A stretch of DNA of 64,000 nt, taken from assembly GCA_902793435.1 (NCBI GenBank), contig CADBDF010000005.1:14383-78382 (forward strand). Reading direction: 5' to 3'. A program made the translations under genes and the position numbers. The notes beneath the pieces are model-generated. The model ran no database searches, had not been told where the DNA came from, and saw only the letters and a program-made list of their open reading frames with translations. Shown here one piece after another: positions 26,741 through 46,745 of the stretch. The stretch comes from an uncultured Pseudomonadota bacterium (GTDB lineage: Bacteria > Pseudomonadota > Alphaproteobacteria > Rs-D84). Numbering within the stretch: position 1 is the first letter of the stretch; the number at the start of each line of letters is the position of its first letter.

Positions 26741-27187
26741 TTAGAAAGGAATTTCGTCGCCAGCCAAATCCCCCACAGAAATTTCTTCGTGTTTTTGCGG
26801 TTGTACGGAATCAGCCATTGCGCCATCCACAGCCTTGGCGCCAGACAAAATAACCATTTGACCACCAAACGGATTTAATGTCACTTCGGTTGTATATTGA
26901 TCTGTGCCTTGTTGGTTTTGCCATTTACGTGTGCGCAAAGAACCTTCGATATACAATTTTGTTCCTTTTTGCAACATGCGTTCAACGACATCAACCAAGT
27001 TTGGTTGGAAAACAACGACGCGGTGCCATTCGGTTTGTTCTTTTTGTTCCCCAGATGCTCTATCGCGCCAACGATCAGACGTTGCCAACGAAAAACTTGC
27101 AACCTTTTGACCATTATTCATTGTTCTAATTTGGGGTTCTTGACCAACATTGCCGACCAAAATAACTTTATTTATACTGCCTGCCAT
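26741..27187 (-). CDS. ssb: single-stranded DNA-binding protein
   Basis: OB-fold N-terminus ([11 protein letters not shown]), WHRV motif and an acidic tail ending in DEIPF. Confidence 0.95.
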
Positions 27188-27316
27188 TTTTTCTTCCTTT
27201 TTGTTAATTTACATTATGATTGTAAGCACTTTTGTTGTCTTTTTGCAAGGATTTTGTTGCAATTCAATTTTTTTGTTATAGCCTGTTAAAATAACAACAT
27301 CACCAGGGAGGAGTTT

Positions 27317-28096
27317 ATGTATGTGTCACCAAAACCCAAAATAATATATTTGCAAGATTTGATAAATTCCCCAGAATTTCAAAATACAAATGCCGAAATG
27401 CCAATTATTTTTGGTTGTGATACCAATAAAAATATTGTGGTCCAAGATTTAACAACAATTCCTCATTTATTGATTGGTGGAAAAACTGGTTCTGGCAAGA
27501 CGATGTTTTTGCATACTGTATTATATTCACTGTCGGCAAAATTAACGCCAAAGCAATGCCGTTTTATAATATTTGATACAAAAAATTATGGTTATAAAAA
27601 TTGGAATACTGACAAACACATGTTTGTCCCTGTGATAACAAATACAGACCAAATTATACCGATGTTTAATAAAATACTGGAAATGATAGATTCCAGGTAT
27701 GAAACATTTACGGCGGCAAATGTTAATAATATTCGTGAATATAATGCGTTGGGCAATAATATGCCAATGATGGTTGTTATCATTGATGAATTTGCTGATT
27801 TTATGGGTATTGCCCCAAATGACACAACGAAATTTGTCCAAACGATTTGTGCCAAGGCGCGCGCCACCGGTATTCATTTGTTGGTTGCAACACAAATGCT
27901 GACATCGGACGTTTTGTCTAATGCGATATTGTCATGTTTTCCGGCGCGTGTTGCATTTAACACACGAACCACAGCGGAATCTGTCCAGTTATTAGGCGAA
28001 CCTGGGGCGCAAAGGCTGTTGCCTTTTGGCGATATATTGTATGCCGATGCGGGTCGTTATCCAATACAAATTCAAACCCCATATCCAGAAATATAA
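27317..28096 (+). CDS. stand-alone FtsK/SpoIIIE-type motor-domain ATPase
   Basis: Walker A GGKTGSGKT, Walker B VVIIDEFAD and LLVATQ motifs. At 259 aa it has no TM, linker or gamma domain. A strong gggaggag RBS precedes it. Confidence 0.8.
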   Translation: MYVSPKPKIIYLQDLINSPEFQNTNAEMPIIFGCDTNKNIVVQDLTTIPHLLIGGKTGSGKTMFLHTVLYSLSAKLTPKQCRFIIFDTKNYGYKNWNTDKHMFVPVITNTDQIIPMFNKILEMIDSRYETFTAANVNNIREYNALGNNMPMMVVIIDEFADFMGIAPNDTTKFVQTICAKARATGIHLLVATQMLTSDVLSNAILSCFPARVAFNTRTTAESVQLLGEPGAQRLLPFGDILYADAGRYPIQIQTPYPEI

Positions 28097-30783: not shown

Positions 30784-30849
30784 ACACGGATTGCAGTGCC
30801 TGTTTCCTGCGGGTTTTAAGAGTTTTTTTATTGTGACATACGGATCAGT
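30784..30849 (+). repeat. two degenerate att-like copies outside the island
   Basis: gtgacatacggat-cag at 30834-30849 (3-nt deletion relative to the core) and acacggattgcag at 30784-30797. Confidence 0.35.
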
Positions 30850-30969
30850 CTGTATGTTTATGGATGTTTTTTGTAAAAATGGCCATTGTTATGCTTTTAT
30901 AAACAATCAATATTTTATCAAATTTTCGCAGAAATCTGCAGTTTTTGCACGTGTAATTTATCTGACAAA

Positions 30970-30989
30970 GTGACATACGGATTAACAGC
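30970..30989 (+). repeat. att core, tRNA-distal copy
   Basis: 20/20 identity with 46695-46714. The 23 nt to its left match the tRNA-Asn 3' end at 11/23 positions, with substitutions mostly toward A/T. Confidence 0.6.
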
Positions 30990-31066
30990 AAGCCCGCAAT
31001 TTGCCCGGATTTTCTTGGGTTGCAGCGTGTAAGGCCCATAAATCAGCCACTTTTTCGCGTATAGCT

Positions 31067-31138
31067 GTGTAGCCACTGTGTAGCTGTTTTTTTATGTGTA
31101 GCTCCTGTGTAGCAAAAAAATTGCACTATCGTGTAGCC
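31067..31138 (+). repeat. five direct (T/C)GTGTAGC repeats (putative integrase arm-type sites)
   Basis: Copies lie at 31067, 31078, 31096, 31107 and 31131, all in the same orientation, 80-170 bp from the att core. Confidence 0.55.
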
Positions 31139-31222
31139 ACATGTACTAAAAAAATACAAAAGAGAGAATGCATCAACCAACTTTTACGGAATATTTTTGG
31201 TGATTTTATCGCGACTAACGGA

Positions 31223-31681
31223 CTAAATTTTGCTTTTTAATTTTTCAAAAAAAATATCAAATCCATTATACTCTATGTGTCGTCTTACTCGTTTGTTTAC
31301 AGCAATAACTCTGCCGGTTGGCATCTGTGTTGATAAGCCAGCGTTGTATTCATGCCAATAAGACGATTTATCTGTTTTGATTCCAAGTTTTTGTAAAGCT
31401 TCTTCTGCCAAATCGCCTATGGGAGCATTTGGCAGTACAACCCCATTATTAAAAGTACGAGTTTTTGCATATATACCGTATCCGATTTTTATCAATGTAC
31501 CATCTTTTACTAACATGCGTAATGCACGCAGCACTTGATCATAGTCATATTCCGCCACAAGATCATCAAAATCCTTTAAGATAAAAACGTTGTCTTTTCG
31601 TCTTTTAATGCGTAATGCGGTTTTGTATAAAAGGGGCTTTTTATTTTTCATGTTGCGATCTCTTGTGTCAAAATACGACAT
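31223..31681 (-). CDS. DUF6088 / AbiEi_4-like wHTH protein
   Basis: The pattern VFILKDFDD...ALRMLVKDGTLIKIGYGIYAK...AGLSTQMP matches the AbiEi-type antitoxin-like family by eye. Confidence 0.55.
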   Translation of the reverse strand: MSYFDTRDRNMKNKKPLLYKTALRIKRRKDNVFILKDFDDLVAEYDYDQVLRALRMLVKDGTLIKIGYGIYAKTRTFNNGVVLPNAPIGDLAEEALQKLGIKTDKSSYWHEYNAGLSTQMPTGRVIAVNKRVRRHIEYNGFDIFFEKLKSKI

Positions 31682-31721
31682 TTTTATATAAAAAGCGAGA
31701 TTTTTTTATAGAAATACTATC

Positions 31722-31960
31722 AAAAACGACAAATTATTGCAAAAACAGCACTAAAAATAACAAATAATTGCAAAAAGACGTTAAAAAGGGATTAAAAACG
31801 ACAAAAAATAGCAATAATCAAAAACAATAGAAATTCTTGCTAAAAATATGCGTATTTTTAGTTAAAAATGACAAATTGTTGCAAAAATAGCATTAAAAAC
31901 GACAAATTATTGCAAAATGCTCTTGAAAATACGTTAAAAATAACATAAAATTACAATAAA
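31722..31960. promoter_or_regulatory. six direct ~24-bp repeats (AAAAACGACAAATTATTGCAAAA) in divergent intergenic region
   Basis: Copies start at 31722, 31753, 31794, 31864, 31895 and 31936. The spacing is 31/41/70/31/41, meaning a 142-bp duplicated triplet. Confidence 0.6.
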
Positions 31961-31971
31961 GAGGTTTAAGT

Positions 31972-33438
31972 ATGGTGATAGATAATTTACCAGAGGTGTT
32001 TTTATCAACGGGCGATGTGGCTTATAAGGTTTCTCGTCTATTGAAGGATGGTCAGGTAAAAAAATTGACCGGTAATTTGTATACTTCTAATGTCACAGAC
32101 GATGTCGACAAGATTGTTTCTACTCGTTTATGGGAAATCGTTGGGTTGTTGTTTCCTGGTGCCATTATCTCAGATCGAACCGCTTTTTATATGGGACCAA
32201 ATAAAGATCATGAAATATTTATCGTTTCAGAAAAATCCAGACGACCGGTAAAAGTTGGCTCTTATACAATTTATCCTCGTCCTGGGGCGGCTGTTCAGCC
32301 ATCTGATACACCTTTTATGGGAAATTTGTTTTTGGCTTCTAATGCTAGAAAATACTTAGAGAATATGAGGGTATCTCGTAACAAAGTTAGTATAGAACCT
32401 CGTTATTTATCTCAACAAGAAATAGAAGAAAAATTGGATCAATATATACGGGTTAATGGGGAGGCCGCATTAAATAAATTGCGTGACGATATGCGCACTT
32501 TATCTGCCACGTTAAAGTTGGAATCAGAGTTCAATAAAATAAATTCGATCATCAGTACGTTGTTAAGAACTCATACCTCAAGATTGAAATCTAATGTTGG
32601 TATTGCTCGCTCTATGGGTGAAGAATTTGATCCTGAACGTGTTGTGTTATTCACGGCGTTATATGAGGCACTTAGTTCAACCGCTCCGGTAATTCGTAAA
32701 ACCGAACAGAACTTTTCTCCAGTTTTATGTTTTTATGAATCATATTTTTCTAATTATATTGAGGGAACTAAATTTGCTGTTTCTGAAGCACAGGATATAG
32801 TTTTTAATAATAAAATACCCGCATCTCGGCCCGATGATGCACATGATATAGCTGGAACGTATGCTGTTATTTCTAGCGAACATGACATGTTGCGTACACC
32901 AAAGAATTTTGATGACTTTATTGACATATTAAAAAAAAGGCATGCACGTATAATGGAAGGGAGACCAGAAAAAGAACCCGGAAAATTTAAAACATTATTA
33001 AACCAGGCCGGATCCACAGTATTTGTTGAACCAAATCTTGTTGTTGGAACTTTAAAACAAGCTTTTGAATTGTATTCAAGGTTGGATACAGCCTTTGCGC
33101 GTGCTGTGTTTATGATGTGTGCAATAGCAGAAGTTCATCCTTTTAATGATGGAAATGGGCGTATATCAAGAATTATGATGAATTCAGAACTTGTTGCAAA
33201 CAACGAATCTCGTATAATAATACCAACAATTTATCGTTCGAATTACTTGATGGCATTGAAGGGTTTCTCTCATAACAAAATTACTGATTCTATAATAAAG
33301 ACGATGGATTTTGCTCAAAAATATACTAGTCAAATAGATTGGACTGATTTGCGCACAGCTACTGATATATTACAATCAACAAATGCGTTTGTTGAGGACG
33401 CTGAAAATATTACGGCATTATTAAGATTGCCGAAATAG
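31972..33438 (+). CDS. AbiEi-like N-terminal domain fused to class II Fic (AMPylase-type) domain
   Basis: Fic motif HPFNDGNGRISR and N-terminal inhibitory-helix motif SNYIEG. The N-terminal ~230 aa have AbiEi features (LLKDGQVKKLTGNLY, AIISDRTAF). Confidence 0.85.
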   Translation: MVIDNLPEVFLSTGDVAYKVSRLLKDGQVKKLTGNLYTSNVTDDVDKIVSTRLWEIVGLLFPGAIISDRTAFYMGPNKDHEIFIVSEKSRRPVKVGSYTIYPRPGAAVQPSDTPFMGNLFLASNARKYLENMRVSRNKVSIEPRYLSQQEIEEKLDQYIRVNGEAALNKLRDDMRTLSATLKLESEFNKINSIISTLLRTHTSRLKSNVGIARSMGEEFDPERVVLFTALYEALSSTAPVIRKTEQNFSPVLCFYESYFSNYIEGTKFAVSEAQDIVFNNKIPASRPDDAHDIAGTYAVISSEHDMLRTPKNFDDFIDILKKRHARIMEGRPEKEPGKFKTLLNQAGSTVFVEPNLVVGTLKQAFELYSRLDTAFARAVFMMCAIAEVHPFNDGNGRISRIMMNSELVANNESRIIIPTIYRSNYLMALKGFSHNKITDSIIKTMDFAQKYTSQIDWTDLRTATDILQSTNAFVEDAENITALLRLPK

Positions 33439-33794
33439 TTTTTTAATAATTTATTGATGTCCAATAATGAATATTTAGATAGAAAAATATATGCATTTTT
33501 CTATAAAAATCGATTCGTTTGAAAATGGTGATTTTTGGGTCGGGTGCCGTCGATGAGGGGGAGCAAAAAAATTTAACAAAAGTATATTTAGATGCGTTCT
33601 CATACATTTTTGATATATTATGATACATTTCATTTGTTCAAAAAAGTGTATTTTTCTGCGGCTTTTACAAGACTTTTATTTTTTAGCATGCTATAATTTG
33701 CATGTAAGGATATCAAAAATTGCTGTGATTTTAGATGATACTTTACGGCGTTTTTTGAACCGGACAAAACCATCAAAACCCAAAGGAGAAAAAC

Positions 33795-34055
33795 ATGGAA
33801 CATGAGTTCTTGAATTATGGGGGGATGGAGAGAGAACCAAACTATAAACTTATAAACATAAAGGAAGATGTTTTGAAAGACAGGCTGCTTACACCAAGAG
33901 AGACAGCAGCTTATCTTGGATCGTCTGTTTCGGCATTAAGCCAATATCGTGCGCTGGGGATCGGGCCTTTGTACTTCAAAATCGGCAAAATGGTGCGGTA
34001 TCGCATATCAGATATAGATAAATGGCTGGAAGATAAGAAAAACGGTGGGAAATAA
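33795..34055 (+). CDS. AlpA/excisionase-type HTH protein
   Basis: LLTPRETAAYLGSSVSALSQYRALGIGPLYFKIGKMVRYRISDIDKWL fits the HTH_17/AlpA pattern. It lies directly upstream of int. Confidence 0.7.
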   Translation: MEHEFLNYGGMEREPNYKLINIKEDVLKDRLLTPRETAAYLGSSVSALSQYRALGIGPLYFKIGKMVRYRISDIDKWLEDKKNGGK

Positions 34056-34093
34056 TTGTTTCTACTGGATATTCCGTAGTTATCGTGCATTGT

Positions 34094-34101
34094 TGTGTAG
34101 C
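34094..34101 (+). repeat. single TGTGTAGC copy just upstream of the int RBS
   Basis: Same octamer as the island-end clusters, about 7 nt before the aaaggag RBS of int. Confidence 0.35.
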
Positions 34102-34121
34102 TGTAACAAAGGAGTACACAT

Positions 34122-35330
34122 ATGGCAGAACAATGGAAATGTTATACTAAACCGTTTCGGGATACATGGATACATCTGTTGCATTCGGATGTGAATTTAC
34201 AGGTAAGTGACGGGACAATCCCCGGGCTATTCCTGCGATATTCGGCGGCAACGCGTACTATCAGGTTTTTCCTGGGGTGTAAAATCGATAAAAAGAAATG
34301 TAACCTTTATATCGGGCGGTATAACGATTATTCAATCAAAGACATTCGTGAAATGGCATGGAATATGCGGCATCAAATTGCCCAGGGGCAAGACCCACGT
34401 CGCGAAAAGATAGAACAACAAATGAAAGAAAAAGAGGCGCTTGGGGAAAAGTTCCAAGATTTATTCCCACAATACATGGATAAATATGCCAAGGTTTACA
34501 AGAAACCACGAACACAAGATTCTAATTGGGGTGAATACCGATTATATCTGGGGCCAATGTTTGATAAATTATACATGCGTCAGATAGAAGAAAAGCATGT
34601 AATGGATGCCTATGCCAAATGGGTTAAAAAGACATCGTTTTCAACCGCAAATAAAGCACTATCGTTATTCTCAAATTTCTGGGACTGGTGCGAAATGTAC
34701 AAATACGTGGATCGCAACACCAACCCATGTAAATATGTTCGCAAAGGGGCGAATAAAACTTACAAGCCACAAATACTTGATCAAAATGGCTATCGTGCGT
34801 TATCGCATGCGCTGGAGGTTGGACCAAAGGTGTCCAGAATGCATCCACGCTTATTCAATGCTTTGCGGGTTTTAATGCTAACCGGATGTCGTGCATCAGA
34901 AATAACAGGTCTGGAAGTAGACGAATTGGCACTGATGCACAAAGTAATACATTTGAAAGACAGTAAGACCGGGGCCAGGGATGTTAAGTTATGTGATGCG
35001 GTTATACCATATTTACAGGCTGCGCTGGATGAAGCAACTGCGCTGGGCAGTAAATACGTATTTCCAGGCGTAGGCAATATCCGGCGCCCAATAAATAACA
35101 TCCGTAAACCGTTTGAATGGGCGCTGGAATACGCAAAGCTGCCCCACATGCGAATACACGACCTGCGGCACTCATTCATCAGTATGGGGGCGAATATAGG
35201 CGAAAACATGGCCGCCATGAAAGAAGCGGCAGGCCACAGTCGCATAACCACCACCGAAGGCTACACTCATATCATGGACAGCAGCACCTATCGTGCGATA
35301 AATAACGTTGCAAACGCAATATGTGGCTAG
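34122..35330 (+). CDS. int: tyrosine-type site-specific integrase (P4-like, DUF4102 N-domain)
   Basis: Catalytic boxes TGCRASEI, HDLRHSF and GHSRITTTEGYTH, with a P4-type N-terminal arm-binding region. Confidence 0.95.
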   Translation: MAEQWKCYTKPFRDTWIHLLHSDVNLQVSDGTIPGLFLRYSAATRTIRFFLGCKIDKKKCNLYIGRYNDYSIKDIREMAWNMRHQIAQGQDPRREKIEQQMKEKEALGEKFQDLFPQYMDKYAKVYKKPRTQDSNWGEYRLYLGPMFDKLYMRQIEEKHVMDAYAKWVKKTSFSTANKALSLFSNFWDWCEMYKYVDRNTNPCKYVRKGANKTYKPQILDQNGYRALSHALEVGPKVSRMHPRLFNALRVLMLTGCRASEITGLEVDELALMHKVIHLKDSKTGARDVKLCDAVIPYLQAALDEATALGSKYVFPGVGNIRRPINNIRKPFEWALEYAKLPHMRIHDLRHSFISMGANIGENMAAMKEAAGHSRITTTEGYTHIMDSSTYRAINNVANAICG

Positions 35331-35361
35331 TTGTGCGCTGGTGTATCGTGATGAATCAAAT

Positions 35362-35385
35362 TCGCCCCGTTACAGGGGCGTTTTT
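35362..35385 (+). terminator. terminator after int
   Basis: Stem cgcccc / ggggcg with loop gttaca, followed by ttttt. Confidence 0.55.
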
Positions 35386-35390
35386 ATGGG

Positions 35391-37109
35391 GGTAACGGCG
35401 AGCGCAATGCCTCTTTACACACACAACGTCAAAATGTGTTCGCAGTTCGCACTTTGGGGGTGTAAACCGCAGAAATCTGGTAAAACATGGGTGCGAACAC
35501 ATGCGAACACCTAGTGCGAACACCTAATGTGATTTGAAGGTATACTTGCGACCTTTGTTCCGGCCGGTGGCAACCAAAAAACCTTTATTTACTAAAACAG
35601 AAAACAATTGTCGGACACGTTGTGGTGATTTGCCGGTGGCTTTTATTGCATCTGCGGCGGTGACTTCGCCCTTGGTAATAATGATCACTGCGATGGTTTT
35701 TAAGAACTTATGTTCGGTATCGCTCAGCATATCGATAGTTATATCGCTAGCTATATCGCTAACTTTTTTATCGCTACTAGCGATATATTGACGTTGATTT
35801 ATAAAATCGTCATACATAAAAATTCACCTTTTATCGGGTTCATTTTTGATTCTAACCCATTTTTCCGAAAAATCTAGTCTTTTAAGAAAGCCGTCTAACT
35901 GTCCTGTATTGTGGCGTATCATAAAAAATCAAAAAGGTACTGTCTGGACATTTTTCTATTGAGGGTAACGGCGAGCGAGGCACTTCGCTAGCGTCAGAAC
36001 AAAAAATAGGTGCGCAGGTGCGCACTTTGGGTATTTATTGCGTAAAAACAAAGCGTTAAGTGCGCACCTGGGGTGCGCACCAGGTTCGCACCCATGATTT
36101 CAGTTCTGAAATCACATACGATATCGTGTACGATTTCATATACGATATCGTGGGTAAAGAAAAAGAAAGAAGTAAGTAGTAAAGGAAAAGATAAATATAA
36201 AGAAAAAGATAATTGTAAAGAAAGAGAAAGAAGTAATGCACGTTCAAATTGTTGAAAACCTGTTGAAAACTTACGTGCATCTGTTGGTATAGTTTGTAAT
36301 GCTTTGCAATGTGTTGATAACTATTTTGTGCACACCAGATGTATCACAAAGTATCAATGTGTTTTGTCATGCAAGGATGATAGTTAGCAATATGGCTTGT
36401 TACATACAGAGCAAAAAAGGTGTCCGCAGTCCGCACTTTGGGTCTTTGTTTCGTAAAAACAATAAGTGCGTGTCATTGGTGCGTGCCTAGTACGCATCAA
36501 AACAAAAAAGGTACTGTGACGGGAGTTTCAATCAAGGGTAACGGCGAGCGCAGCGCCTCGCTACACACAAGATAAAATTTTAAGCCGCATGCCGCACCGC
36601 AGGGGTCAAGTGTGCAGAAATCTGGTTTTTTAGTGCGGCTTTGTGCCGCGGCAGTGCCGCACTTATGCCGCACAGAGACAGAACAAATTGCCTATGAACC
36701 CCAATCAAGAACCATAAAAAATATCGTGATGTGTTAATTTGATTCAAAAAGAATCGTAATGTTTTTTCATGAATTTACATATAAAAATATCATGATTTTT
36801 TGGGTCAAATGTATCGTGGTGTATCATAATGTGTCAACGAAAAAATCCGCAGAAAATAAGGGCTTTACAAATGAAAATTTTTCATGCATGGTGGGGATGA
36901 AGCAAAGGATTTTTTATGAACGATTTTGAGTTTGTTGTTGATTTGTTAAGTAAAACAGGGGCTGTTGGCAACTGCATTATAGACCTGGAAATAACGAAAC
37001 GGAATTTCAGTGCGTTAAAAGGCAACAATGATGTGCGGATACAAAAACAGCTCAACATCAGTTTGCAAAGATATCACAACGAAATTGATGAACTGCATAG
37101 AATAGTTGG
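35391..37109. repeat. three tandem diverged modules with exact 573-bp period and module-specific iterons
   Basis: The GGTAACGGCGAGCG box occurs at 35391, 35964 and 36537. cgcactttggg lies at offset +57 in modules 1 and 2. gcagaaatctgg lies at offset +80 in modules 1 and 3. Each module has its own NNCGCAC word family in direct and inverted copies. Confidence 0.6.
35524..35817 (-). CDS. small winged-helix DNA-binding protein
   Basis: 97 aa. The C-terminus AADAIKATGKSPQRVRQLFSVLVNKGFLVATGRNKGRKYTF is wHTH-like. The stop codon overlaps the GTGCGAACAC iterons. Confidence 0.5.
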   Translation of the reverse strand: MYDDFINQRQYIASSDKKVSDIASDITIDMLSDTEHKFLKTIAVIIITKGEVTAADAIKATGKSPQRVRQLFSVLVNKGFLVATGRNKGRKYTFKSH

Positions 37110-37290
37110 CATCAATCCGTCATCGCCAAACGAACCAATACCACATAACCCCAGAAACGAATTGCAATATATCACCGACAGAATCCCCGCATATGTAGCC
37201 TTACGAGAACTAAAAGGCGACCTCAGAGCATATGCAATAGATTGTCTGTTGCCCAGATTGTATCCAAAACGAAAAATCGGGGGGATATAG
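36916..37290 (+). CDS. small conserved protein, paralogue A (R-M-associated)
   Basis: 124 aa. It aligns without gaps, at about 30% identity, to the 47240..47593 product (MNDFEFV/MNNFDFV; YITDRIPAYVALREL/YITRMIPTYVICREL). The upstream ctttacaaa...atgcat region is also shared. Confidence 0.6.
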   Translation: MNDFEFVVDLLSKTGAVGNCIIDLEITKRNFSALKGNNDVRIQKQLNISLQRYHNEIDELHRIVGINPSSPNEPIPHNPRNELQYITDRIPAYVALRELKGDLRAYAIDCLLPRLYPKRKIGGI

Positions 37291-37356
37291 GATGTTCTAC
37301 TTGACTTTATCCCTTGTTTTGGGCTACATTTTTCACAAAGGAAAGGTTGAAATCTC

Positions 37357-38346
37357 GTGGAATACGAAGTTGATGTAAAAGAAAGTATGATAAAGAAAAA
37401 GTGGCCAGGGGTTCTGGAGCTGCTTCTTTTAGATCACACAACGAATAAAAACATATTTTGGGCTACAGATCTTTATGAAAAACGGTACAAATCACGCTTC
37501 TATGCCTTTAGATCGCCAATTACAATAGATTTGATCACTGAGGGAGAAGATCGTGTTATTAAACCTCGTGTCACCAAAGAAAAACAAGATCGACAATATC
37601 GTATCAAGGATAAAGCAGAAGTTTTTACACCAGCATGGATTTGCAATAAACAAAACAACCTGATTGACAATGATTGGTTCGGTTATGAGGGTGTTTTCAA
37701 CAAAGAAAAAGATGATAATACCTGGACCGCCACCAAGAAACCGGTTATGTTTCCAGAAGGAAAAAATTGGGTTGATTATGTTCGTGAATTGCGGTTAGAG
37801 GTTGCGTGTGGTGAGGCGCCGTATTTGGTCAGTCGATATGACATCACAACCGGTAAAAAAATCAAGTTACAGAATAGAATTGGTTTGTTGGATCGCAAGA
37901 TGCGTATAGTAAACGAAAACGCCGCCAGTGATAGCGAATGGATTGCGATGACAAAATGGGCGTTCAAAAGCACATACGGTTACGAATGGCAGGGGGATAA
38001 TTTGTTATTGGCCCGTGAAAACCTGTTGTTCACATTTATCGATTATTTTGAAGATAGATTTGGTAAAGAACCAGATATGGAAATGTTGAAAGAAATAGCG
38101 GAAATCATTTCTTGGAATATTTGGCAGATGGACGGCATTCGTGGTGTGTTGCCATGCACGTGTTGTAATTCAAAATACACAGATTTATTTGGCGAAAAAA
38201 CGATGGACTGTTGTCTTGGGTGTAAAACGGGCGATATCCACAGTCATAATGGAAAATACTGCTATATCGGTGATTGGAACAGAATGACATCAAAAGGACA
38301 ACCAACAAAAATTAAATATATTTCATTACTAAAGGGTAAAAAATGA
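37357..38346 (+). CDS. degenerate gamma-MTase-like N-lobe protein with C-terminal Cys/His zinc-finger-like cluster
   Basis: Motif X-like AEVFTPAWICN and motif I-like LEVACGEAPYLVSRYD, but no NPPY. The C-terminus is CTCCNS...CCLGCKTGDIHSH. GTG start after an aaggaaagg RBS. The stop overlaps the next start (ATGA). Confidence 0.65.
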   Translation: MEYEVDVKESMIKKKWPGVLELLLLDHTTNKNIFWATDLYEKRYKSRFYAFRSPITIDLITEGEDRVIKPRVTKEKQDRQYRIKDKAEVFTPAWICNKQNNLIDNDWFGYEGVFNKEKDDNTWTATKKPVMFPEGKNWVDYVRELRLEVACGEAPYLVSRYDITTGKKIKLQNRIGLLDRKMRIVNENAASDSEWIAMTKWAFKSTYGYEWQGDNLLLARENLLFTFIDYFEDRFGKEPDMEMLKEIAEIISWNIWQMDGIRGVLPCTCCNSKYTDLFGEKTMDCCLGCKTGDIHSHNGKYCYIGDWNRMTSKGQPTKIKYISLLKGKK

Positions 38347-41300
38347 GCAACTTTGAATCAGCTTTCAGTGGTTATAAACTTATTTACGTTTTTAGCATGC
38401 CTTACGCAGATCACGATGGTGCGTTAAAGATAGGTGAAGCAACAATAAACACCGATGAGTTGCCGGATACTTTGACCCCAAATTGTCAGGAATTAAATGC
38501 TGCTGCTAACAAACGTATTAAGCAATATACTCAGACAGCAGGCCTGAGGTACGATTTGTTATACACAGAACTTGCTAAGACAAACGCCGGTAAGGCTTTT
38601 TCTGATCATGATGTTCATAAAGTTTTAAATCGTTCAAACATAAAGAAAAAACAATTTGAAGAAGTCGATGGATCCAAAGAATGGTATATGGTTGGTTTAG
38701 ATGTTGTAAAAAATGCGATAAGGGCCGTTAAAGAAGATAGAAAATCATTGGATCCAAACGAAGCCATTTCATCTTGTGCACCGATCCTTTTACGTGATGA
38801 ACAGAAAGATGCAGTAAAGAAAACAATCAAGCGTTTCAAGTCTGGGCATAATCGTATGTTGTGGTATGCAAAGATGCGGTTTGGGAAAACATTAACAGCA
38901 ATGTCTTTGGTGGGCGAATTAGGTTTAAAACGTACAATAATCATCACGCATAGACCGGTGGTAAAAGATGGTTGGTATGATGATTTCAAAAAACTATTTT
39001 GTGATAAACCAGATTATAAATTCGCTTCACGTACAGTCGGTGAAAATTTTGAAGACGTAGAGCGCGATGCAAAACACGATAGATGTAAATATTTATACTT
39101 CGCATCCATTCAGGATTTGCGTGGCGCAGAAGCCGCTGGTGGAAAGTTTGATAAAAACAATGCGATATTTAACACCGATTGGGATATGGTCATAATTGAT
39201 GAGGCTCACGAGGGTACCCAAACAGAACTTGGTAAGAATATTGCAGAATTGTTGGTTAAAGACAAAACATACTTGTTGCAATTGTCCGGTACACCGTTCA
39301 ACTTGTTGGATAATATAGACGAAGACGAGGTCTATACTTGGGACTATATTATGGAACAGCGTGCCAAGGCAGATTGGCATAAAAAACACCTCGGTGAACC
39401 GAACCCTTATGCATCTTTGCCAAAGATGAATATATTTACTTATGACATGAGTAAAATAGAAGGTGGCAAATATGGGTCTTATACCGAAGATAAATATTTC
39501 AACTTTTCTGAGTTTTTCAAGACTAAACCAAATGGTGATTTTGTTCATGAAGACGACATTCGTGAGTTCTTAAATTTGTTAGTAGACGATAAAGCAGACA
39601 GTAATTATCCTTTCTCTAAACAAGAGTATCGTGATAACTTCAGACATTCGTTGTGGATGGTTCCTGGTGTAAAGGAAGCAAAGGCACTTAGCAAATTGTT
39701 AAAAGATCACCCTGTGTTCGGAAAGTTTAATATAGCAAACGTAGCTGGTGATGGTGACGAAGAAACAAACTTTAAAGATGCGCTGGACTTAGTACGTAAA
39801 GCGATTACGGATCATCCGCAGGACACATATTCTATAACGATTTCCTGTGGTCGTTTAACAACAGGTGTAACTGTACCAGAATGGACGGCTGTATTTATGT
39901 TGGCTGGTGCATACTCAACGGCCGCATCAACATACATGCAAACAATATTCCGTGTTCAATCGGCGGCAAACATCAATGGTCGTATCAAAGAAAACTGTTT
40001 TGTTTTTGATTTTGCACCTGATCGTACCCTGAAATGTGTTGCTGAATCTGTTAAGGTTTCAACACGTGCCGGTAAAACACGTGCAACCGATCGTGCGATA
40101 ATGGAAGATTTGTTGCAATTCTGCCCGATTATTTCGGTAACTGGTTCACATATGAACCCGTATAATGTCAATGGTATGCTTGAACAATTAAAACGTGCGT
40201 ACATTGATCGTATCGTTACTCATGGATTTGAGGATCCAAATCTGTTCAATCGTGATATGTTGTTACAGTTGGATAAATCGGCGGTTGAAAAGTTTGATGC
40301 TTTACAAAAATTGGTTGGCAGTTCAACGTCCAAAAACTCTGATACGAATAAAGAAAAACAAATTATCATGGCTGATAATGGCATGAATCCAGATGGTGCA
40401 AAACAATCTGATCAACAGCCACCACAAACGCCACTAACAGATGATGAACGTGCTGCGTTGGAAGAACGTAAAGAGGCTAAATCAAAACGCGAAAAAGCTT
40501 TAAAGGCATTGAAGGGTGTTGCTATTCGTATTCCAATGTTGATTTACGGCGCAGATATCGATGTAAACCAAGATATTGACTTGGAGCAGTTCGTTGATAT
40601 GGTTGATCCAATATCGTGGGAAGAATTTATGCCGCGTGGCATAGATAAAGAAGTGTTTAAACAATTTATCCCATATTTTGATCGTGATGCGTTTATTGGG
40701 GCTGGTAAAGAGATTCGCCAACGTATTAAACGTGCTGACCGTATGGAACCAACAACCAGAACACGTTTCATGACTGCGCTGTTCTCTACCTTTAAAAACC
40801 CTGACAAGGAAACGGTTTTAACGCCGTGGCGTGTCGTGAATATGCATATGGGTGATTGTTTGGGGGGATATAATTTTTATGATCCAGAATACAAGAATCC
40901 AATTCCAGATACCGAAGATGTTAGGTATATGGATATCCCAAATGTTACGGATGAAGTTTTTGGACCAAAAGATACCAAAATTTTGGAAATAAATTCAAAG
41001 TCTGGTTTGTATCCATTATATGTGACATACACAATTTGGCGTAAAAGATGTATGGAAAATAACATTGATATAACAAAATTAACCGAAGATGACACATTAT
41101 TTGCCAAAGCACTTGAGATATGGGACAGCGTCGTTCAAAATAATGTCTATATTATCTGCAAAACCCAAATGGCTAAAAGCATTACGCAAAGGACTTTGTG
41201 CGGCTATCGTGATGCTAAAATAAATGCACACGCTTTTGACAATTTGGTTACAATGATAAAAGATGGTAAAAGCAATAAATTTATAGAAAAAGCGAAAACT

Positions 41301-42359
41301 GGTTCAACATATAATTCAAAATCAAAGGAGGCAAATATGAAATTTAATGCGGTAGTGGGCAATCCTCCTTACCAGGAGAATATAGATAATCGTGGTGAAC
41401 AACCTCCTTTGTATCATTTTTTCTATGATTGTGCACAACAGTTATCCGCAATTGTGACCCTTATAACACCGGCTAGATTTTTGTTTAATGCTGGTAAAAC
41501 ACCGGCGGCATGGAATAAAAAGATGTTGAATGATCCTCATTTTAAGGTTGTGGATTATTTCCAAAATTCTAAAAATGTTTTTGATAGTGTAGACATTAAA
41601 GGCGGTGTTGCTATTTCTATTATAGATCAGCATCGTAATTTCGGTAAGATAGGGGACTTTGTGAAAAACAATGAGATACGAGATATTTTAGTGAAAGTCT
41701 CAAATCAAAATAATTTGTCAGAAATTGTATTTTCAAATACTAGCTATAAGTATAGCAAGCTGTTTTTTGAAGAGCACAAAGAATTAAGAGATAGAGTTTC
41801 CGGTGGATCATCAAGATATTTATCTTCATCTGTATTTGATAAATTTCCAGAAGTTTTCTATGAAGAGCTGCCAAAAGACAACAAGAAATATATCTGTATT
41901 TTAGGAAGACAGAATTCTCATCGGCGTTTTATGTGGATGAGGGCGGATTATTTATGTCCTCCAAATAATTGTAATAAATATAAAGTTTTTATAGCCAGTT
42001 CTAATGGCACGGGAGCTCTGGGTGAAGTTTTGAGTGAACCTATTGTAGGAAAGCCTTTTACAGGGGCTACAGAAACTTTTTTAAGTATTGGTAATTTTGC
42101 AAATGAAGAGCAGGCTGTGAATTTATGTAAATATATAAAAACTAAATTTGCTAGAGTAATGCTGGGGACTAAAAAAGTAACACAGGGCAATAAAAAACCA
42201 GAAATTTGGTCTAATATCCCTTTGCAGGATTTTACGAATAAATCTGATATTGACTGGTCTAAATCTATTGCCGAAATAGATAAGCAATTATACAAGAAGT
42301 ACGGCCTGGATAAAAAAGAAATCGATTTCATCGAATCCATGATCAAACCAATGGAGTAA
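38343..42359 (+). CDS. GIY-YIG/T5orf172-like domain - SF2 (ResIII/SNF2-like) helicase - Eco57I-type N6-adenine MTase fusion protein
   Basis: 1338 aa. The N-terminus has YKLIYVF..LKIGEA..KEWYMV. Helicase motifs are Walker A MRFGKT (~38875-38892), DEAH (39198-39209), LSGTP and QTIFRVQS. MTase motifs are motif X ETVLTPWRVV, atypical motif I ILEINSKSGLYPLYV and NPPY at 41361-41372. Confidence 0.85.
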   Translation: MSNFESAFSGYKLIYVFSMPYADHDGALKIGEATINTDELPDTLTPNCQELNAAANKRIKQYTQTAGLRYDLLYTELAKTNAGKAFSDHDVHKVLNRSNIKKKQFEEVDGSKEWYMVGLDVVKNAIRAVKEDRKSLDPNEAISSCAPILLRDEQKDAVKKTIKRFKSGHNRMLWYAKMRFGKTLTAMSLVGELGLKRTIIITHRPVVKDGWYDDFKKLFCDKPDYKFASRTVGENFEDVERDAKHDRCKYLYFASIQDLRGAEAAGGKFDKNNAIFNTDWDMVIIDEAHEGTQTELGKNIAELLVKDKTYLLQLSGTPFNLLDNIDEDEVYTWDYIMEQRAKADWHKKHLGEPNPYASLPKMNIFTYDMSKIEGGKYGSYTEDKYFNFSEFFKTKPNGDFVHEDDIREFLNLLVDDKADSNYPFSKQEYRDNFRHSLWMVPGVKEAKALSKLLKDHPVFGKFNIANVAGDGDEETNFKDALDLVRKAITDHPQDTYSITISCGRLTTGVTVPEWTAVFMLAGAYSTAASTYMQTIFRVQSAANINGRIKENCFVFDFAPDRTLKCVAESVKVSTRAGKTRATDRAIMEDLLQFCPIISVTGSHMNPYNVNGMLEQLKRAYIDRIVTHGFEDPNLFNRDMLLQLDKSAVEKFDALQKLVGSSTSKNSDTNKEKQIIMADNGMNPDGAKQSDQQPPQTPLTDDERAALEERKEAKSKREKALKALKGVAIRIPMLIYGADIDVNQDIDLEQFVDMVDPISWEEFMPRGIDKEVFKQFIPYFDRDAFIGAGKEIRQRIKRADRMEPTTRTRFMTALFSTFKNPDKETVLTPWRVVNMHMGDCLGGYNFYDPEYKNPIPDTEDVRYMDIPNVTDEVFGPKDTKILEINSKSGLYPLYVTYTIWRKRCMENNIDITKLTEDDTLFAKALEIWDSVVQNNVYIICKTQMAKSITQRTLCGYRDAKINAHAFDNLVTMIKDGKSNKFIEKAKTGSTYNSKSKEANMKFNAVVGNPPYQENIDNRGEQPPLYHFFYDCAQQLSAIVTLITPARFLFNAGKTPAAWNKKMLNDPHFKVVDYFQNSKNVFDSVDIKGGVAISIIDQHRNFGKIGDFVKNNEIRDILVKVSNQNNLSEIVFSNTSYKYSKLFFEEHKELRDRVSGGSSRYLSSSVFDKFPEVFYEELPKDNKKYICILGRQNSHRRFMWMRADYLCPPNNCNKYKVFIASSNGTGALGEVLSEPIVGKPFTGATETFLSIGNFANEEQAVNLCKYIKTKFARVMLGTKKVTQGNKKPEIWSNIPLQDFTNKSDIDWSKSIAEIDKQLYKKYGLDKKEIDFIESMIKPME

Positions 42360-42364
42360 AGTGT

Positions 42365-42703
42365 ATGCGAGTAGATGTGAACTTTAAAATATCCAACGAT
42401 AATGATAATCAATACCATGATGAAATTGTTGCTGGCTTGATGGATAGATATAATTGGTATGAAGAGTATGGTTTAATTGGTGGCGACATTCCTAATATGG
42501 TAAATAATGATGTCTGCATGTCAGAGTGCTATAAAATGGTTTTGGCGGTTGTTCAGGATGTAGCAACAAAGTATAATCAAATATTACAACTTGATGCTTT
42601 ATATATTTCGGTGAATCTTGTTGCTAGAAATTACGTACCTGGGCAGCAAATACAACCTGGAACAATGAAAGAATATAAGAACATAACAGTTAAACCAATA
42701 TAG
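42365..42703 (+). CDS. hypothetical protein, last gene of operon
   Basis: 112-aa ORF starting 5 nt after the previous stop. A GGAG RBS sits within the upstream gene's end. Confidence 0.5.
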   Translation: MRVDVNFKISNDNDNQYHDEIVAGLMDRYNWYEEYGLIGGDIPNMVNNDVCMSECYKMVLAVVQDVATKYNQILQLDALYISVNLVARNYVPGQQIQPGTMKEYKNITVKPI

Positions 42704-42733
42704 ATACAAAGTTCGTAAAAATAAATTTATAAC

Positions 42734-43219
42734 TTATTGCGCTGTTTGACTCTTTGCCGCTAACAGATTGGCGCGTTCGTTCTTTTTCTCTTGTAAATCT
42801 ATGTAAGTATATCTGCGTGAAGTTTTTATCGGGTACGTAGAGTACACAAAATCAATGAACTTATTAAACGAAAAATCTTTCGTAAGCTCAATAACTTTAC
42901 AAATAACGTTTTTTTCAGATTCTGTTAAATGTTTATAATCATAATTTGTGTTCTTTATGCTTATATACAAAGCTGTCCCATGCGGAGTTTTTGTAAAGAA
43001 CTCTTCTGATGCAGCGTCGCACACTTCTTGAACATAAGGTCCATAATTGTGAAAAAACCATTTGATGCCAGATATGCTTTTTGCATCTGGCGTTAGCAAT
43101 ACGTTTCGCCAGTCAGACAAAAACACCAACTTTGTAAGTCGTGCGTTGGATAGATCTTGTCTTTTGTTTTCGGGGTATGCCGATATGATAAAATGTATGA
43201 TTTCTTGCAGTTTATTCAT
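42734..43219 (-). CDS. Panacea (DUF4065, SocA/PanA-like) domain protein
   Basis: ARLTKLVFLSDWRNVLL...FFHNYGPYVQEV matches the DUF4065 pattern. The start overlaps the upstream gene's stop by 8 nt. Confidence 0.7.
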   Translation of the reverse strand: MNKLQEIIHFIISAYPENKRQDLSNARLTKLVFLSDWRNVLLTPDAKSISGIKWFFHNYGPYVQEVCDAASEEFFTKTPHGTALYISIKNTNYDYKHLTESEKNVICKVIELTKDFSFNKFIDFVYSTYPIKTSRRYTYIDLQEKKNERANLLAAKSQTAQ

Positions 43220-44057
43220 TTTCTAACCCCTCGACTTCTTTCATTATTTTAACATATTTGTAATAAGATTTGAATAATTTTGTTATCTTTTTAAACACCG
43301 CTTTACACAAGTATTTTATAATTAGCTTTTGAAAAAATTTTCCAAAATGACCGTAAAGCGACTCATTTGTTGTTTCAAACACGATAACACCAAGTTTTTC
43401 ATCATTGCATTTGAATTGTTGTGCATAATAAATTGCGGATTTCATTTTTATTCCATGTAATACTTTTTGATCCATATTTGGGTATGTGTTTTTGTTCTTT
43501 TTTACCCACTGACTGGCAGATTCTACTTTGCCAAAATTATGGTATATGTTACGCGTGTTATTAAAACATGTTCCGACAATATCGTCTTGTAAAATTAGAC
43601 TTTTAGGATCTTTATTCTTTTGGTTTTCATTTGCTGAATACCTATAAAATCGCAAGAAAGATTGTGTCGTATCCTGGATGTATATTGTGACGCGTTCATT
43701 TGCTTCAAAATTTGCCAACAATGAAGAAAGGGCCATGACTTTATCACAAGATTTAAATAAGTGCTTTTTTACCAGGCTTTTTAAATCTTCAGGATCATAG
43801 GTGTTGCTTAAGTGTTCAAACCAACCTAACATCGGATCTATTATTATTGCACGCAAGCACCACAATATAACGACAACAAGCGCAAACACCCGTAAGGCTG
43901 GTGCAATATTGTAACCAAATATAACATGCCCATCAGGGAAAAGAGAAAAATAGGCCAATATTATAGCAACTATGAACGGGCCGCCAAACATCAAACGACC
44001 GTTTATATTCCAATTCAGTTTTATGTTATGAAAAATATTATAGAACCAAAATCTCAT
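43212..44057 (-). CDS. membrane protein (2-3 TM) with cytoplasmic GAF-like domain
   Basis: N-terminal hydrophobic helices (FGGPFIVAIILAYFSLF, ALRVFALVVVILWCL). The C-terminal region ends in a KLGVIVFETTNESLYGHF GAF-like pattern; this domain call is weak. Confidence 0.55.
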   Translation of the reverse strand: MRFWFYNIFHNIKLNWNINGRLMFGGPFIVAIILAYFSLFPDGHVIFGYNIAPALRVFALVVVILWCLRAIIIDPMLGWFEHLSNTYDPEDLKSLVKKHLFKSCDKVMALSSLLANFEANERVTIYIQDTTQSFLRFYRYSANENQKNKDPKSLILQDDIVGTCFNNTRNIYHNFGKVESASQWVKKNKNTYPNMDQKVLHGIKMKSAIYYAQQFKCNDEKLGVIVFETTNESLYGHFGKFFQKLIIKYLCKAVFKKITKLFKSYYKYVKIMKEVEGLENE

Positions 44058-44157
44058 GGAAAAACCAGTACCACACTTCCTTGAAAAAAACTTACTTGAA
44101 TATAATCAAATTGTTTGCCTTATAGTTGTATAAAATACTTCTTGTTAACGATTACGC

Positions 44158-44186
44158 ATTGTATCATAAAATGCCATAAAAGTCAA
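44158..44186 (-). promoter_or_regulatory. sigma70-like promoter for the TM/Panacea operon
   Basis: The minus strand reads TTGACT-N17-TACAAT, about 95 nt upstream of the start at 44057. Confidence 0.4.
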
Positions 44187-44241
44187 TAAAAAAGCCAAAA
44201 ATAGCGAAGTGGTTCAATATGGTATAAAATATCGTTTTGCT

Positions 44242-44688
44242 TCAGGTTGTAATAAACACAAACCCGAACCATTTGCGTAAAAGGTTAAGATGTGCTTGGT
44301 ATGTTGTTGCGCTGGCTTGTTCTCGCTTGAATTCGGCAATTTCTTCGGCCGACAGGCCAAGTTCCCGAGCAAATCGATTAGCTAGCCCTATAAGGTAGAA
44401 AACGTTTCCTTGCGGGCTTTTCAGGTCAATAACGATGCCAGTCGGATACTTTGCGTTGGGTATAGTGGGTATATCGTTGCGCTGGTAGGCTTTATGATGG
44501 GCCACAACCTGCACAAACTTGTTTTGTATACGGCGGAGCAGCCATGCCTGGCGGCAGGTCAATTTACCGCCGTTTGTGCGACGAATTGCGGCCTGTAGTT
44601 CGCGTAAAGACCGACAAGCGGCAAAATATAACATCACAAAATCTGTGCGATGGTTGGGCAAAATATCGTCAAAATGCGTATATTTCAT
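44242..44688 (-). CDS. hypothetical protein (has a relic paralogue at 51005-51211)
   Basis: The ATG at 44688 follows an aaagga RBS. The segment TNGGKLTCRQAWLLRRIQNKF recurs outside the island. Confidence 0.5.
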   Translation of the reverse strand: MKYTHFDDILPNHRTDFVMLYFAACRSLRELQAAIRRTNGGKLTCRQAWLLRRIQNKFVQVVAHHKAYQRNDIPTIPNAKYPTGIVIDLKSPQGNVFYLIGLANRFARELGLSAEEIAEFKREQASATTYQAHLNLLRKWFGFVFITT

Positions 44689-44812
44689 AGACAATCCTTT
44701 TAAGGTTGTCGTATTTGTCCGCATTTATTGCCAAAAGTCCAGTTGTTTGTTGTAAATAAAGGATATTGCTTGTTTTTCAAATTTTTGGTAATTTGGAACC
44801 AAAGGGGACAAA

Positions 44813-45574
44813 ATGGCAGATTATAAGGAATATCTGGATAAAATAAGAAATTCGCAGTTGTTATATTTTGATTCATTTCCATTGGATATGACGTCTTGTG
44901 AATATAATGTGCATTTGTTGTTGAATAAAATGGCAGAGTCAAGAAAATCGTATTTATTACTAATGGACAATGAAAGGTTTTCAGATGCCGTATTGATAGC
45001 AGGACATTTGTTAGAGAATGCTGCGGTGATCAATTATATTTCTGCCAGTTTGCAAGAAGCTAATACAAAACAAATAAGCAAATTACAAACTCTATGTGAT
45101 TTATTCAAATTTGTAGGCGATGATAATGTGGATGCGGAAACTCAAGAAACTATAGATTTTATAATGGATGATTTTAAGAATAGATGCGACATAGTTGTAT
45201 CGAAAAAAGCGGAACAAAGTCACGAAGAATTGGTCCAGACTATATTGATGGCTATGACAAATTCGGAAAAATTAAGAATTATAAAAAATAATTACGAATT
45301 TCCGGTGGTTGAAGATTATTTGAGGCCGTTTAGGAAAGATTTATCAAATTTTTATGGTTTTTCCGGTATTGATAAAAAGCTTGTGTTGTTTTATTCGTCA
45401 TATTGCAAAATAAAACACTGCGGGGCGGCTATGTATGCGCCAGTTCTATGCAAAGATAGGGTTGTTATGAATAAAAATCAGTACAGAGACCTTAGCCCTA
45501 TAGTTGTCTGGATGTGTTTGGAATACACAGAAAAGAATATAAAAAATATATTGTCAATAAACGAACTAAAATAA
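44813..45574 (+). CDS. hypothetical protein
   Basis: 253-aa ORF with a ggggacaaa RBS-like stretch. No confident domain. Confidence 0.5.
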   Translation: MADYKEYLDKIRNSQLLYFDSFPLDMTSCEYNVHLLLNKMAESRKSYLLLMDNERFSDAVLIAGHLLENAAVINYISASLQEANTKQISKLQTLCDLFKFVGDDNVDAETQETIDFIMDDFKNRCDIVVSKKAEQSHEELVQTILMAMTNSEKLRIIKNNYEFPVVEDYLRPFRKDLSNFYGFSGIDKKLVLFYSSYCKIKHCGAAMYAPVLCKDRVVMNKNQYRDLSPIVVWMCLEYTEKNIKNILSINELK

Positions 45575-46402: not shown

Positions 46403-46543
46403 ATTATAACCTTACTACTGCGGATATAGGTATAAAATCAGATTTTTCAATAATAGTATCGCATTATGTTCAAAATATGTAGACAATTTTACGGGTTGAA
46501 AAAGCATAAGTTATTCATAAGACGACGGATAGGTTACGGATCC

Positions 46544-46562
46544 TGTGTAGCTATTGTGTAGC
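46544..46562 (+). repeat. two direct TGTGTAGC repeats (putative arm-type sites, tRNA-proximal end)
   Basis: Copies at 46544 and 46555, in the same orientation as the left-end cluster, about 135-150 bp from the att core. Confidence 0.5.
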
Positions 46563-46629
46563 CAGAGGGGTGTTTTATGGCGTATTTTGGTGTATCGTAG
46601 TATGCGTAAATACAGAAGTGTTAAGTAAA

Positions 46630-46660
46630 GAAAATGCCGTAAACCTGCGGGGTTTACGGC
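46630..46660 (-). terminator. terminator after tRNA-Asn (island-encoded)
   Basis: Stem gccgtaaacc / ggtttacggc. Confidence 0.5.
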
Positions 46661-46669
46661 GGAATTCCT

Positions 46670-46745
46670 TGGCTCGGGCAACTGGACTCGAACCAGTGAC
46701 ATACGGATTAACAGTCCGTTGTTCTACCGACTGAACTATGCCCGA
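46670..46745 (-). tRNA. tRNA-Asn (anticodon GTT)
   Basis: Hand-folded 76-nt cloverleaf with anticodon loop CTGTTAA and an encoded CCA. It is close to E. coli tRNA-Asn. Confidence 0.92.
46695..46714 (+). repeat. att core inside tRNA-Asn (anticodon loop to start of T-stem)
   Basis: Identical to 30970-30989. Confidence 0.6.

Follow-up and report, generated by a model that had tools for sequence, protein, structure and literature searches.

The sequence analysed here is a 64-kb stretch of contig CADBDF010000005.1 (positions 14,383 to 78,382), from an uncultured alphaproteobacterium; we call this whole stretch the window. It contains a 15.7-kb island whose two ends are marked by a 20-bp direct repeat, AGTGACATACGGATTAACAG (30969 and 46695); the right-hand copy lies within a tRNA-Asn gene. 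The conserved core of the island consists of alpA, a tyrosine integrase gene (int), an open reading frame (ORF) of 97 amino acids, three repeated modules and a short segment at 36757-36893 (Table 1). Integrase, AlpA and flanking attachment (att) cores, by which a phage-inducible chromosomal island (PICI) is recognized, are all present. Our concern is with the three modules, which occupy the ground between int and the cargo genes and which resemble the cohesive-end (cos) sites of lambda-like phages.

Islands of this kind reside in uncultured Alphaproteobacteria, namely 'Candidatus Enterousia' and its relatives, whose genomes measure about 1 Mb and are known as metagenome-assembled genomes (MAGs) from rumen and gut. 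A pattern scan of species-representative genomes placed the three-module array between int and cargo in seven MAG genomes and found single-module islands, with the word GTCCGCAC and without the 97-aa ORF, in eight more; three phage-type loci came from the same scan. The cargo varies among islands. On the left it is an AbiEi-like gene with Fic, or HipBA, or an AAA_15 protein, and on the right a methylase with a helicase-methylase restriction enzyme, a KAP NTPase with a type I restriction-modification (R-M) system, or KAP with GmrSD.

Each module is headed by a 15-mer box, GGGTAACGGCGAGCG, which occurs exactly three times in the window, always on the + strand; positions within a module (bp) are counted from the first G of the box. 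The first-pass annotation of this DNA had described the copies of short words that follow each box, the element AAAAAGGTACTGT ahead of boxes 2 and 3, the decayed partial unit between modules 2 and 3, and the 97-aa ORF, all of which we recover (Table 1), together with CGCACTTTGGG at 35448, 36021 and 36432. The motif GCAGAAATCTG does recur in modules 1 and 3 (35469 and 36614), at offsets of 78 and 77 from the start of the 14-mer used in that annotation rather than at a shared +80, and has a further copy in the window at 30928. The purine-rich tract after module 2 is likewise real; it is an 18-nt tandem repeat, AAAGAAAAAGATAAATAT, of about four copies (36162-36236) between module 2 and the partial unit, and in L061 module 3 is followed by AG-rich repeats of a similar kind. 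A BLAST comparison of the region with E. coli genomes and with deposited phages gave no matches.

The idea of an exact 573-bp period, maintained in length despite heavy substitution, has to be given up. Box-to-box distances in 13 sister islands are 572/586, 572/584, 564/579, 570/540, 572/576, 560/585 and 549, a range of 540-586 bp, and because these spacings differ we attribute the equality of the two 573-bp intervals in the window to chance on top of common descent. Nor does similarity extend over the whole 573 bp: around each box a three-way alignment is conserved between about -35 and +135 and is background elsewhere, with some 135 nt after each box shared by all three modules and some 35 nt before the box shared by modules 2 and 3 only. 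As similarity ends beyond about 190 nt, the modules are not decayed gene duplicates, and we found no support for the proposal that modules 2 and 3 once bore genes. The stop codon of the 97-aa ORF (35524-35526), said to overlap the module 1 words, abuts the last of them (which ends at 35523) without overlap.

Table 1 Features of the cos-like array and of the island that carries it (positions in the window).
Feature	Position	Strand	Remarks
Module 1, cosN-like box GGGTAACGGCGAGCG	35390..35404	+	Exact match; phage contigs have the same box at the head of their packaging region
Module 1, proximal cosB words GTGTTCGCA + GTTCGCAC	35436..35452	+	R3-like position, bp 47-63
Module 1, distal cosB words, three inverted (G)TGCGAACAC	35490..35523	+	
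Module 2, cosQ-like element AAAAAGGTACTGT	35931..35943	+	Heptamer AGGTACT at -28..-22 from the box
Module 2, cosN-like box GGGTAACGGCGAGCG	35963..35977	+	Exact match
Module 2, proximal words GGTGCGCA x2	36009..36025	+	bp 47-63
Module 2, distal words GTGCGCACC x2 + GGTTCGCACC	36060..36092	+	Arrangement as in phage L138
cosB-only remnant without box	36419..36496	+	Proximal GTGTCCGCA + GTCCGCAC intact; distal words decayed
Module 3, cosQ-like element AAAAAGGTACTGT	36505..36517	+	AGGTACT at -27..-21
Module 3, cosN-like box GGGTAACGGCGAGCG	36536..36550	+	Exact match
Module 3, proximal words GCCGCA + (T)GCCGCAC	36584..36598	+	bp 49-63
Module 3, distal words GTGCGGC (inverted) + 3x (G/A)TGCCGC(AC) (direct)	36633..36673	+	
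97-aa ORF, probable winged-helix core (residues 33-84)	35524..35817	-	Outside the cos unit
Conserved segment with TATCGTG/TATCAT repeats	36757..36893	+	Outside the cos units
Tyrosine integrase (Arm-DNA-bind_3 + Phage_integrase)	34122..35330	+	
AlpA/excisionase-type HTH_17 protein	33795..34055	+	
Left att core AGTGACATACGGATTAACAG	30969..30988	+	
Right att core, inside tRNA-Asn (46670-46745, - strand)	46695..46714	+	

Comparison of the modules with phage ends provides insight into what the units are. In lambda, cosQ (GGGTCCT) lies at -30 to -24 from a left end that starts GGGCGGCGACCTCGCGGGTTTTCGCTAT; cosQ is followed by GGGCGGCGACCT and then by ...TTTTCGCTAT. Phage contig L166, whose small terminase subunit (TerS) is 45% identical to the query family, has GGGTCCT at -25 to -19 and the box GGGTGACGGCGACCT, and L076 has GGGTCCT at -28 to -22 and the box GGGTGACGGGGACCG. 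The phages of the host clade and island modules 2 and 3 have AGGT(A/T)CT at -28 to -22 (-27 to -21 in module 3), followed by GGGTAACGGCGAGC and then TTCGCTA. L166 and L076 form intermediate steps between the box and the lambda cohesive end. In RcKemmy, a cultured Rhodobacter capsulatus phage of the RcC cluster (TerS 29% identical to the family, large terminase subunit, TerL, of the GpA type) AGGTTCT lies at -28 to -22 of the right end and the left end starts GGGGGCGGAAGCGCGTTAAGTCCCTAGCGTGACAC. The ends of its virion DNA are defined and carry an 11-base 5' overhang (PMC8601537). The deposited RcKemmy record opens with GGGGGCGGAAGCG...CTAGCGTGACAC... and bears the word GG(G)TTTCCAC three times at bp 45-80. 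Because this record starts at the box equivalent, packaged DNA of a cultured relative has its physical end at the base that corresponds to the first G of the box; the module 1 box aligns with these first bases and with the lambda cohesive end. RcKemmy shares with the phages described below the gene order ParB-like ... TerS, TerL (GpA), gpW-like (PMC8601537), and differs in its distant TerS, in its word (GGTTTCCAC, in three direct copies) and in being a complete phage, not an island.

The remaining anatomy follows that of lambda as well, with the same order and spacing of subsites: cosQ about 25-30 bp upstream, a GGG...CGGCGA core in cosN, TTCGCTA after the box, a first TerS site at about bp 45-65 and later sites in the opposite orientation, together with a GpA-type TerL in the cognate phages (PMC9026076). 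A cosQ-like heptamer within the expected 20-30 bp upstream of cosN is found in modules 2 and 3 and not in module 1, where the int terminator (35363-35385) takes its place. The R3 site of lambda lies at bp 50-65, and the distance between cosN and cosB is critical in that phage (PMC9026076); the proximal words stand at bp 44-64 in all 21 modules, from islands and phages, in which a tandem pair was detected. The distal copies begin some 35-40 bp after the proximal pair, the inverted ones at about bp 100-135, and are mostly inverted and sometimes direct. In lambda, R2 is oriented opposite to R3 and R1, and phage N15 has a single R3, like those phages of the present set in which cos directly precedes terS and only the proximal pair is found. 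In the spacer, the best match to the integration host factor (IHF) consensus WATCAANNNNTTR with at most two mismatches falls at bp 84-87 (+) in 11 of 16 modules, though individually these matches are not significant against shuffles. The modules differ from lambda cos in three extra bases (TAA/TGA) in the box, in the use of a tandem pair of 7-9-bp words where lambda has one 16-bp R3, and in the ParB-methylase gene that many of the phages here have between cos and terS.

The same unit lies beside terminase genes in more than 20 phage contigs from the host clade of the island. An exact search of IMG/VR for the box returned 37 matches, 36 of them chance occurrences in GC-rich contigs; the one real match is on a 57-kb viral contig, where the box with a new word, GGTACGCA, stands directly upstream of genes for a ParB-methylase, TerS (phrog_57) and TerL. 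The further contigs were collected by searching with an alignment of phage TerS proteins. Two layouts are seen. In L028/L066, L059, L060, L068-L075 and L136-L139 the box-plus-words unit precedes ParB-methylase, TerS and TerL in that order, about 1.45 kb upstream of terS, and in L140, L141, L147, L152, L154, L156, L157 and L166 terS itself follows the unit after 80-93 nt. The TerL of the cognate phages is of the lambda GpA type (GpA_ATPase, 7e-93; GpA_nuclease, 1e-85). An extra box in L008 proved to be a scaffold-gap artefact. One phage-type locus, L063, is in a complete 958-kb MAG (OZ007020.1); it has cosQ, the box and proximal words (GGTACGCA) followed by an unrelated ATPase gene where ParB-methylase and terS would be expected, and may be either a prophage that has been truncated or a cos-bearing element of some other kind.

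The words make best sense as the sites of a DNA-binding protein, specific to each module and with left and right copies that co-vary. To this extent the earlier suggestion of binding sites of diverged specificity stands, although the operator cassettes in which it was framed do not. Among 21 phages, ten word classes correspond to ten variants of an N-terminal TerS segment, HRGVxxxAVxxAxxxxRI, which can be aligned, though weakly, with the recognition helix of lambda Cro (TerS profile against PDB sequences; E 0.25, the sole match). The word follows this helix-turn-helix (HTH) segment and not the remainder of TerS, as two pairs of phages illustrate: L069 and L138 show 93% identity over the C-terminal part of TerS and 68% over the HTH, and their words differ, whereas L071 and L073 show 48% over the C-terminal part and 89% over the HTH, and share a word. 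This relation is a correlative one.

Each island module is nearest to the phage cos that bears the same word. The words of module 1 (GTGTTCGCA/GTTCGCAC) recur in L059, L071, L073 and L158, and L073 has the same GGTGCGAACACATGCGAACAC arrangement as the distal words of this module; the word of module 2 (GGTGCGCA) recurs in L069 and L137. That of module 3 (GCCGCA), a near-palindrome GTGC(G/C)GCAC, is found in L155 (GTGCCGCA/GCCGCAC), which is 69-70% identical over the module. The remnant has the word (GTCCGCA) of phages L075 and L164 and of the single-module islands. In the sister islands L050, L051 and L065 every copy in module 2 reads GGTTCGCA in place of GGTGCGCA, and the copies are arranged as in phage L138, a sign that exchange with a phage cos may have occurred.

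The only ORF adjoining the array is that for the 97-aa protein, on the opposite strand. It is probably a small winged-helix protein, with its winged helix-turn-helix (wHTH) at the C-terminal end, and it matches neither TerS nor the satellite packaging protein Rpp by sequence or fold. The first-pass annotation had put it forward as a possible reader of the words. Three-module islands alone have it; no phage copy of the unit and no single-module island does, and for this reason we prefer the phage-encoded TerS, which is most likely the protein that reads the words. A 12-nt periodic sequence, TATCGCTAGCTA, occupies 35718-35770 in the 5' part of the 97-aa ORF; it encodes SDIASDITID and could equally be a DNA site.

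Taken together, these comparisons indicate that the modules are very probably lambda-type cos sites copied from phages of the same host clade. From the homology and anatomy of the sites, their place in phages and the tracking of their words with the TerS HTH, we infer that the island copies are cut and packaged, a function to which we give somewhat better than even credence. The mechanism would be as follows. The heptamer about 25 bp upstream of the box in modules 2 and 3 would act as cosQ and the invariant box as cosN, the site of nicking and the start of the cohesive end. The cosB part would comprise the two direct words at bp 45-64, a spacer of about 35-40 bp that perhaps holds an IHF-type bend site, and one to four mostly inverted copies. 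The TerS of a helper phage would bind the words of its cognate module through the N-terminal HTH and position the GpA-type TerL on the box, which would be nicked; packaging would then run rightwards through the defence cargo and, in an excised circle or a concatemer, continue round to the next cos. With three word classes (GTGTTCGCA, GGTGCGCA and GCCGCA) and a decayed fourth (GTCCGCA), the array would address several helpers of unrelated specificity: as each module has a different phage word the island could be packaged by any of them, and as all share one box the ends would be compatible whichever module starts or finishes packaging. On the whole, a multi-helper packaging array of cos modules on a tRNA-Asn island is the likely reading.

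Several points weigh against this reading. The upstream heptamer is lacking in module 1, and in lambda cosQ is required for termination. Some copies are damaged: module 2 of L054 has no proximal words, module 3 of L061 is truncated, and the window itself holds the cosB-only remnant. The IHF-like site in the spacer is weak, and the correlation of TerS with the words is observational, among related sequences. No contig in any collection ends at the box; several begin 84-132 nt upstream of it, which looks like assembly breaks at a shared repeat. Searches of 30989-46694 with Pfam, PHROG, NCBIfam and PADLOC recognized no primase, helicase-rep or Rep protein, and no replication, capsid, capsid-remodelling or Rpp/TerS gene was recognized in the island, five ORFs of which have no match of any kind. 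The island is about one third of a typical lambda-like genome.

Some of these weaknesses would suit modules that are relics, that is, non-functional cos fragments left by past phage recombination and now drifting: besides the remnant, the missing cosQ and the damaged modules of L054 and L061, outside box and words the identity between an island module and its cognate phage cos is no more than 55-75%. Drift does not account well for a box that is invariant and for multi-copy words that are intact across islands of seven species-level genomes while their flanks diverge, nor for a box-to-word distance kept within 2 bp, and we argue that such constancy across species reflects selection. The array also keeps its position and orientation between int and cargo, and module 2 of L050, L051 and L065 has a different word in all its copies. 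We consider the relic reading unlikely for the array; single copies may nevertheless be relics, among them the remnant, module 1 and the damaged copies of L054 and L061. The array might instead act against phages, either as a decoy that titrates or misdirects terminase or as a sensor, the cut made by terminase being the signal that turns on the defence cargo alongside. It does lie immediately upstream of the probable cargo leader at 36757-36893 and of the variable defence genes, it covers several phage specificities, and no replication genes are recognized; yet a single chromosomal copy would be a poor titrator, alpA-int and the att sites fit a mobile element that gains from packaging, and the literature we searched offers no precedent. 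This reading appears to us rather less probable still.

Two readings raised by the first-pass annotation fare worse. Short motifs in direct and inverted copies, with a small probable wHTH ORF abutting module 1, are what an iteron-type origin, a partition site or operator cassettes read by the 97-aa protein would look like. However, the same units precede phage terminase genes, and neither there nor in the single-module islands are they accompanied by the 97-aa ORF; the conserved core showed neither a Rep nor a Par gene, the box and the cosQ-like element are homologous to the cos of lambda and RcKemmy, and the words track the TerS HTH. An origin or operator role is highly improbable on these grounds. 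Conserved long hairpins, as RNA or as single-stranded DNA, are suggested by modules 1 and 2, which fold well when single-stranded (z -4.7 and -3.6) and whose arms change together. As a feature of the family this fails. Module 3 folds no better than shuffles (z -0.4), L152 and the other cos-before-terS phage sites have two direct words only and no hairpin, and the distal copies that are direct (in L066, L075, module 3 and the third copy of module 2) have no place in one. Inverted copies of one protein-binding word would mimic covariation, and Rfam gave only a chance microRNA match. We hold hairpins to be just as improbable.

If the cos array does serve packaging, the island has partial counterparts among known satellites. 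The PICIs of E. coli have the cosQ and cosN of lambda-like helpers and a private cosB read by Rpp-TerS, and one of them, EcCICFT073, has a pair of cos sites (named cos1 and cos2), of which only cos1 is needed (PMC6739421, PMC9026076). EcCICFT073 and its relatives resemble the present element as integrative islands with int and alpA, more than one lambda-type cos and helper cosQ and cosN, and they depend on the TerS and TerL of the helper (PMC6739421, PMC9026076). They differ in that the phage cosB is absent and their own Rpp retargets TerS, whereas here each site has a phage-type cosB of a different specificity; and no Rpp-like gene follows cos and no primase or rep module was recognized in this island. 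The PICMIs (phage-inducible chromosomal minimalist islands) of Vibrionaceae are minimal alpA-int islands packaged as concatemers in full-size heads (PMC10803314). They too are small and have defence cargo and no capsid-remodelling genes (PMC10803314); unlike the present island, with its conspicuous cos and no recognized primase, they encode a primase, have no detected cos or pac and have random (headful) ends. When the literature was searched for satellites with several cos sites or with cos in tandem, EcCICFT073 with its two was the only case, and no array such as this one was found described. The cos-type SaPIs (Staphylococcus aureus pathogenicity islands), for instance SaPIbov5, carry the cos of their helper and are packaged by its unmodified terminase; they have a single cos, an HNH/P27-type terminase system, genes for replication and capsid size, and Gram-positive hosts. 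Cos-bearing satellites are already known, then, and what sets the present case apart is the tandem arrangement of complete cos sites with cosB parts of different phage specificities, on an island in which no redirection or replication gene is recognized. It is about an even proposition that we are looking at a defence island that hitchhikes by cos alone, without replication, capsid or redirection genes, its tandem cos sites having one box and different cosB keys that serve several co-resident phages and are renewed by exchange with phage cos.

Beyond the array, the island and its surroundings show several further features. An 8-mer, TGTGTAGC, occurs nine times against 0.9 expected, clustered by both island ends (31066-31137, and twice at 46544-46562) with one copy between alpA and int (34094-34101); these are probably arm-type sites of the integrase. 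The box was considered as the att core of the island and ruled out, since the core is AGTGACATACGGATTAACAG within tRNA-Asn and the likely arm sites are TGTGTAGC. The core corresponds to positions 32-51 of tRNA-Asn, and a partial third copy of it lies at 30833-30845, 136 bp left of the left end, whereas the displaced 3' part of the tRNA was not found anywhere in the window. This points to a deletion at the left junction or to the vestige of an additional element. Genes for a single-stranded DNA-binding protein (SSB) and an FtsK/SpoIIIE-family protein lie left of the island (26741-28096), near the partial att copy, and hint at the remnant of another integrated or conjugative element. On the other side, just outside the island beyond tRNA-Asn, a gene for a second R-M fusion protein, of 1000 aa (N6_Mtase with a Type ISP C-terminal domain) occupies 47574-50576 (-).

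The segment at 36757-36893 is 79-96% identical in every one- and three-module island, just upstream of cargo that is unrelated among them. It is probably a promoter or leader for the cargo and may carry sites for a regulator, perhaps AlpA. Its TATCGTG/TATCATA motifs are also present at 35339-35359, 35905-35932 and 36117-36152, and inverted at 33603-33631; a promoter and terminator scan gave no more matches than shuffles give. Two observations connect the island with phages in other ways. A 160-aa ORF at 44242-44724 (-; phrog_1933) has 87-90% DNA identity with a gene about 1.5-2 kb upstream of cos in the phage or prophage loci L152 and L154, so that the island and its putative helpers share at least one more gene. 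Positions 1-168 of viral contig L133, a phage of the GTGTTCGCA type, are 83% identical to the flank of tRNA-Asn (46708-46875 in the window), and the tRNA-Asn that the island uses may be an integration site for phages of the L133 family as well.

It is still an open question by what means a defence island that lacks transfer genes passes from one bacterium to another, and known cos-bearing satellites either use the cos of one helper or retarget TerS by a protein of their own. If the present reading is true, one cleavage box combined with several phage-specific sets of cosB would be a simple way to broaden the range of helpers, and it would tie the traffic of defence genes in small-genome gut Alphaproteobacteria to their lambda-like phages. 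The reading of DNA by TerS has been difficult to resolve biochemically for lambda; the ten words set against ten variants of the TerS HTH offer a natural recognition table for how small terminases read DNA.

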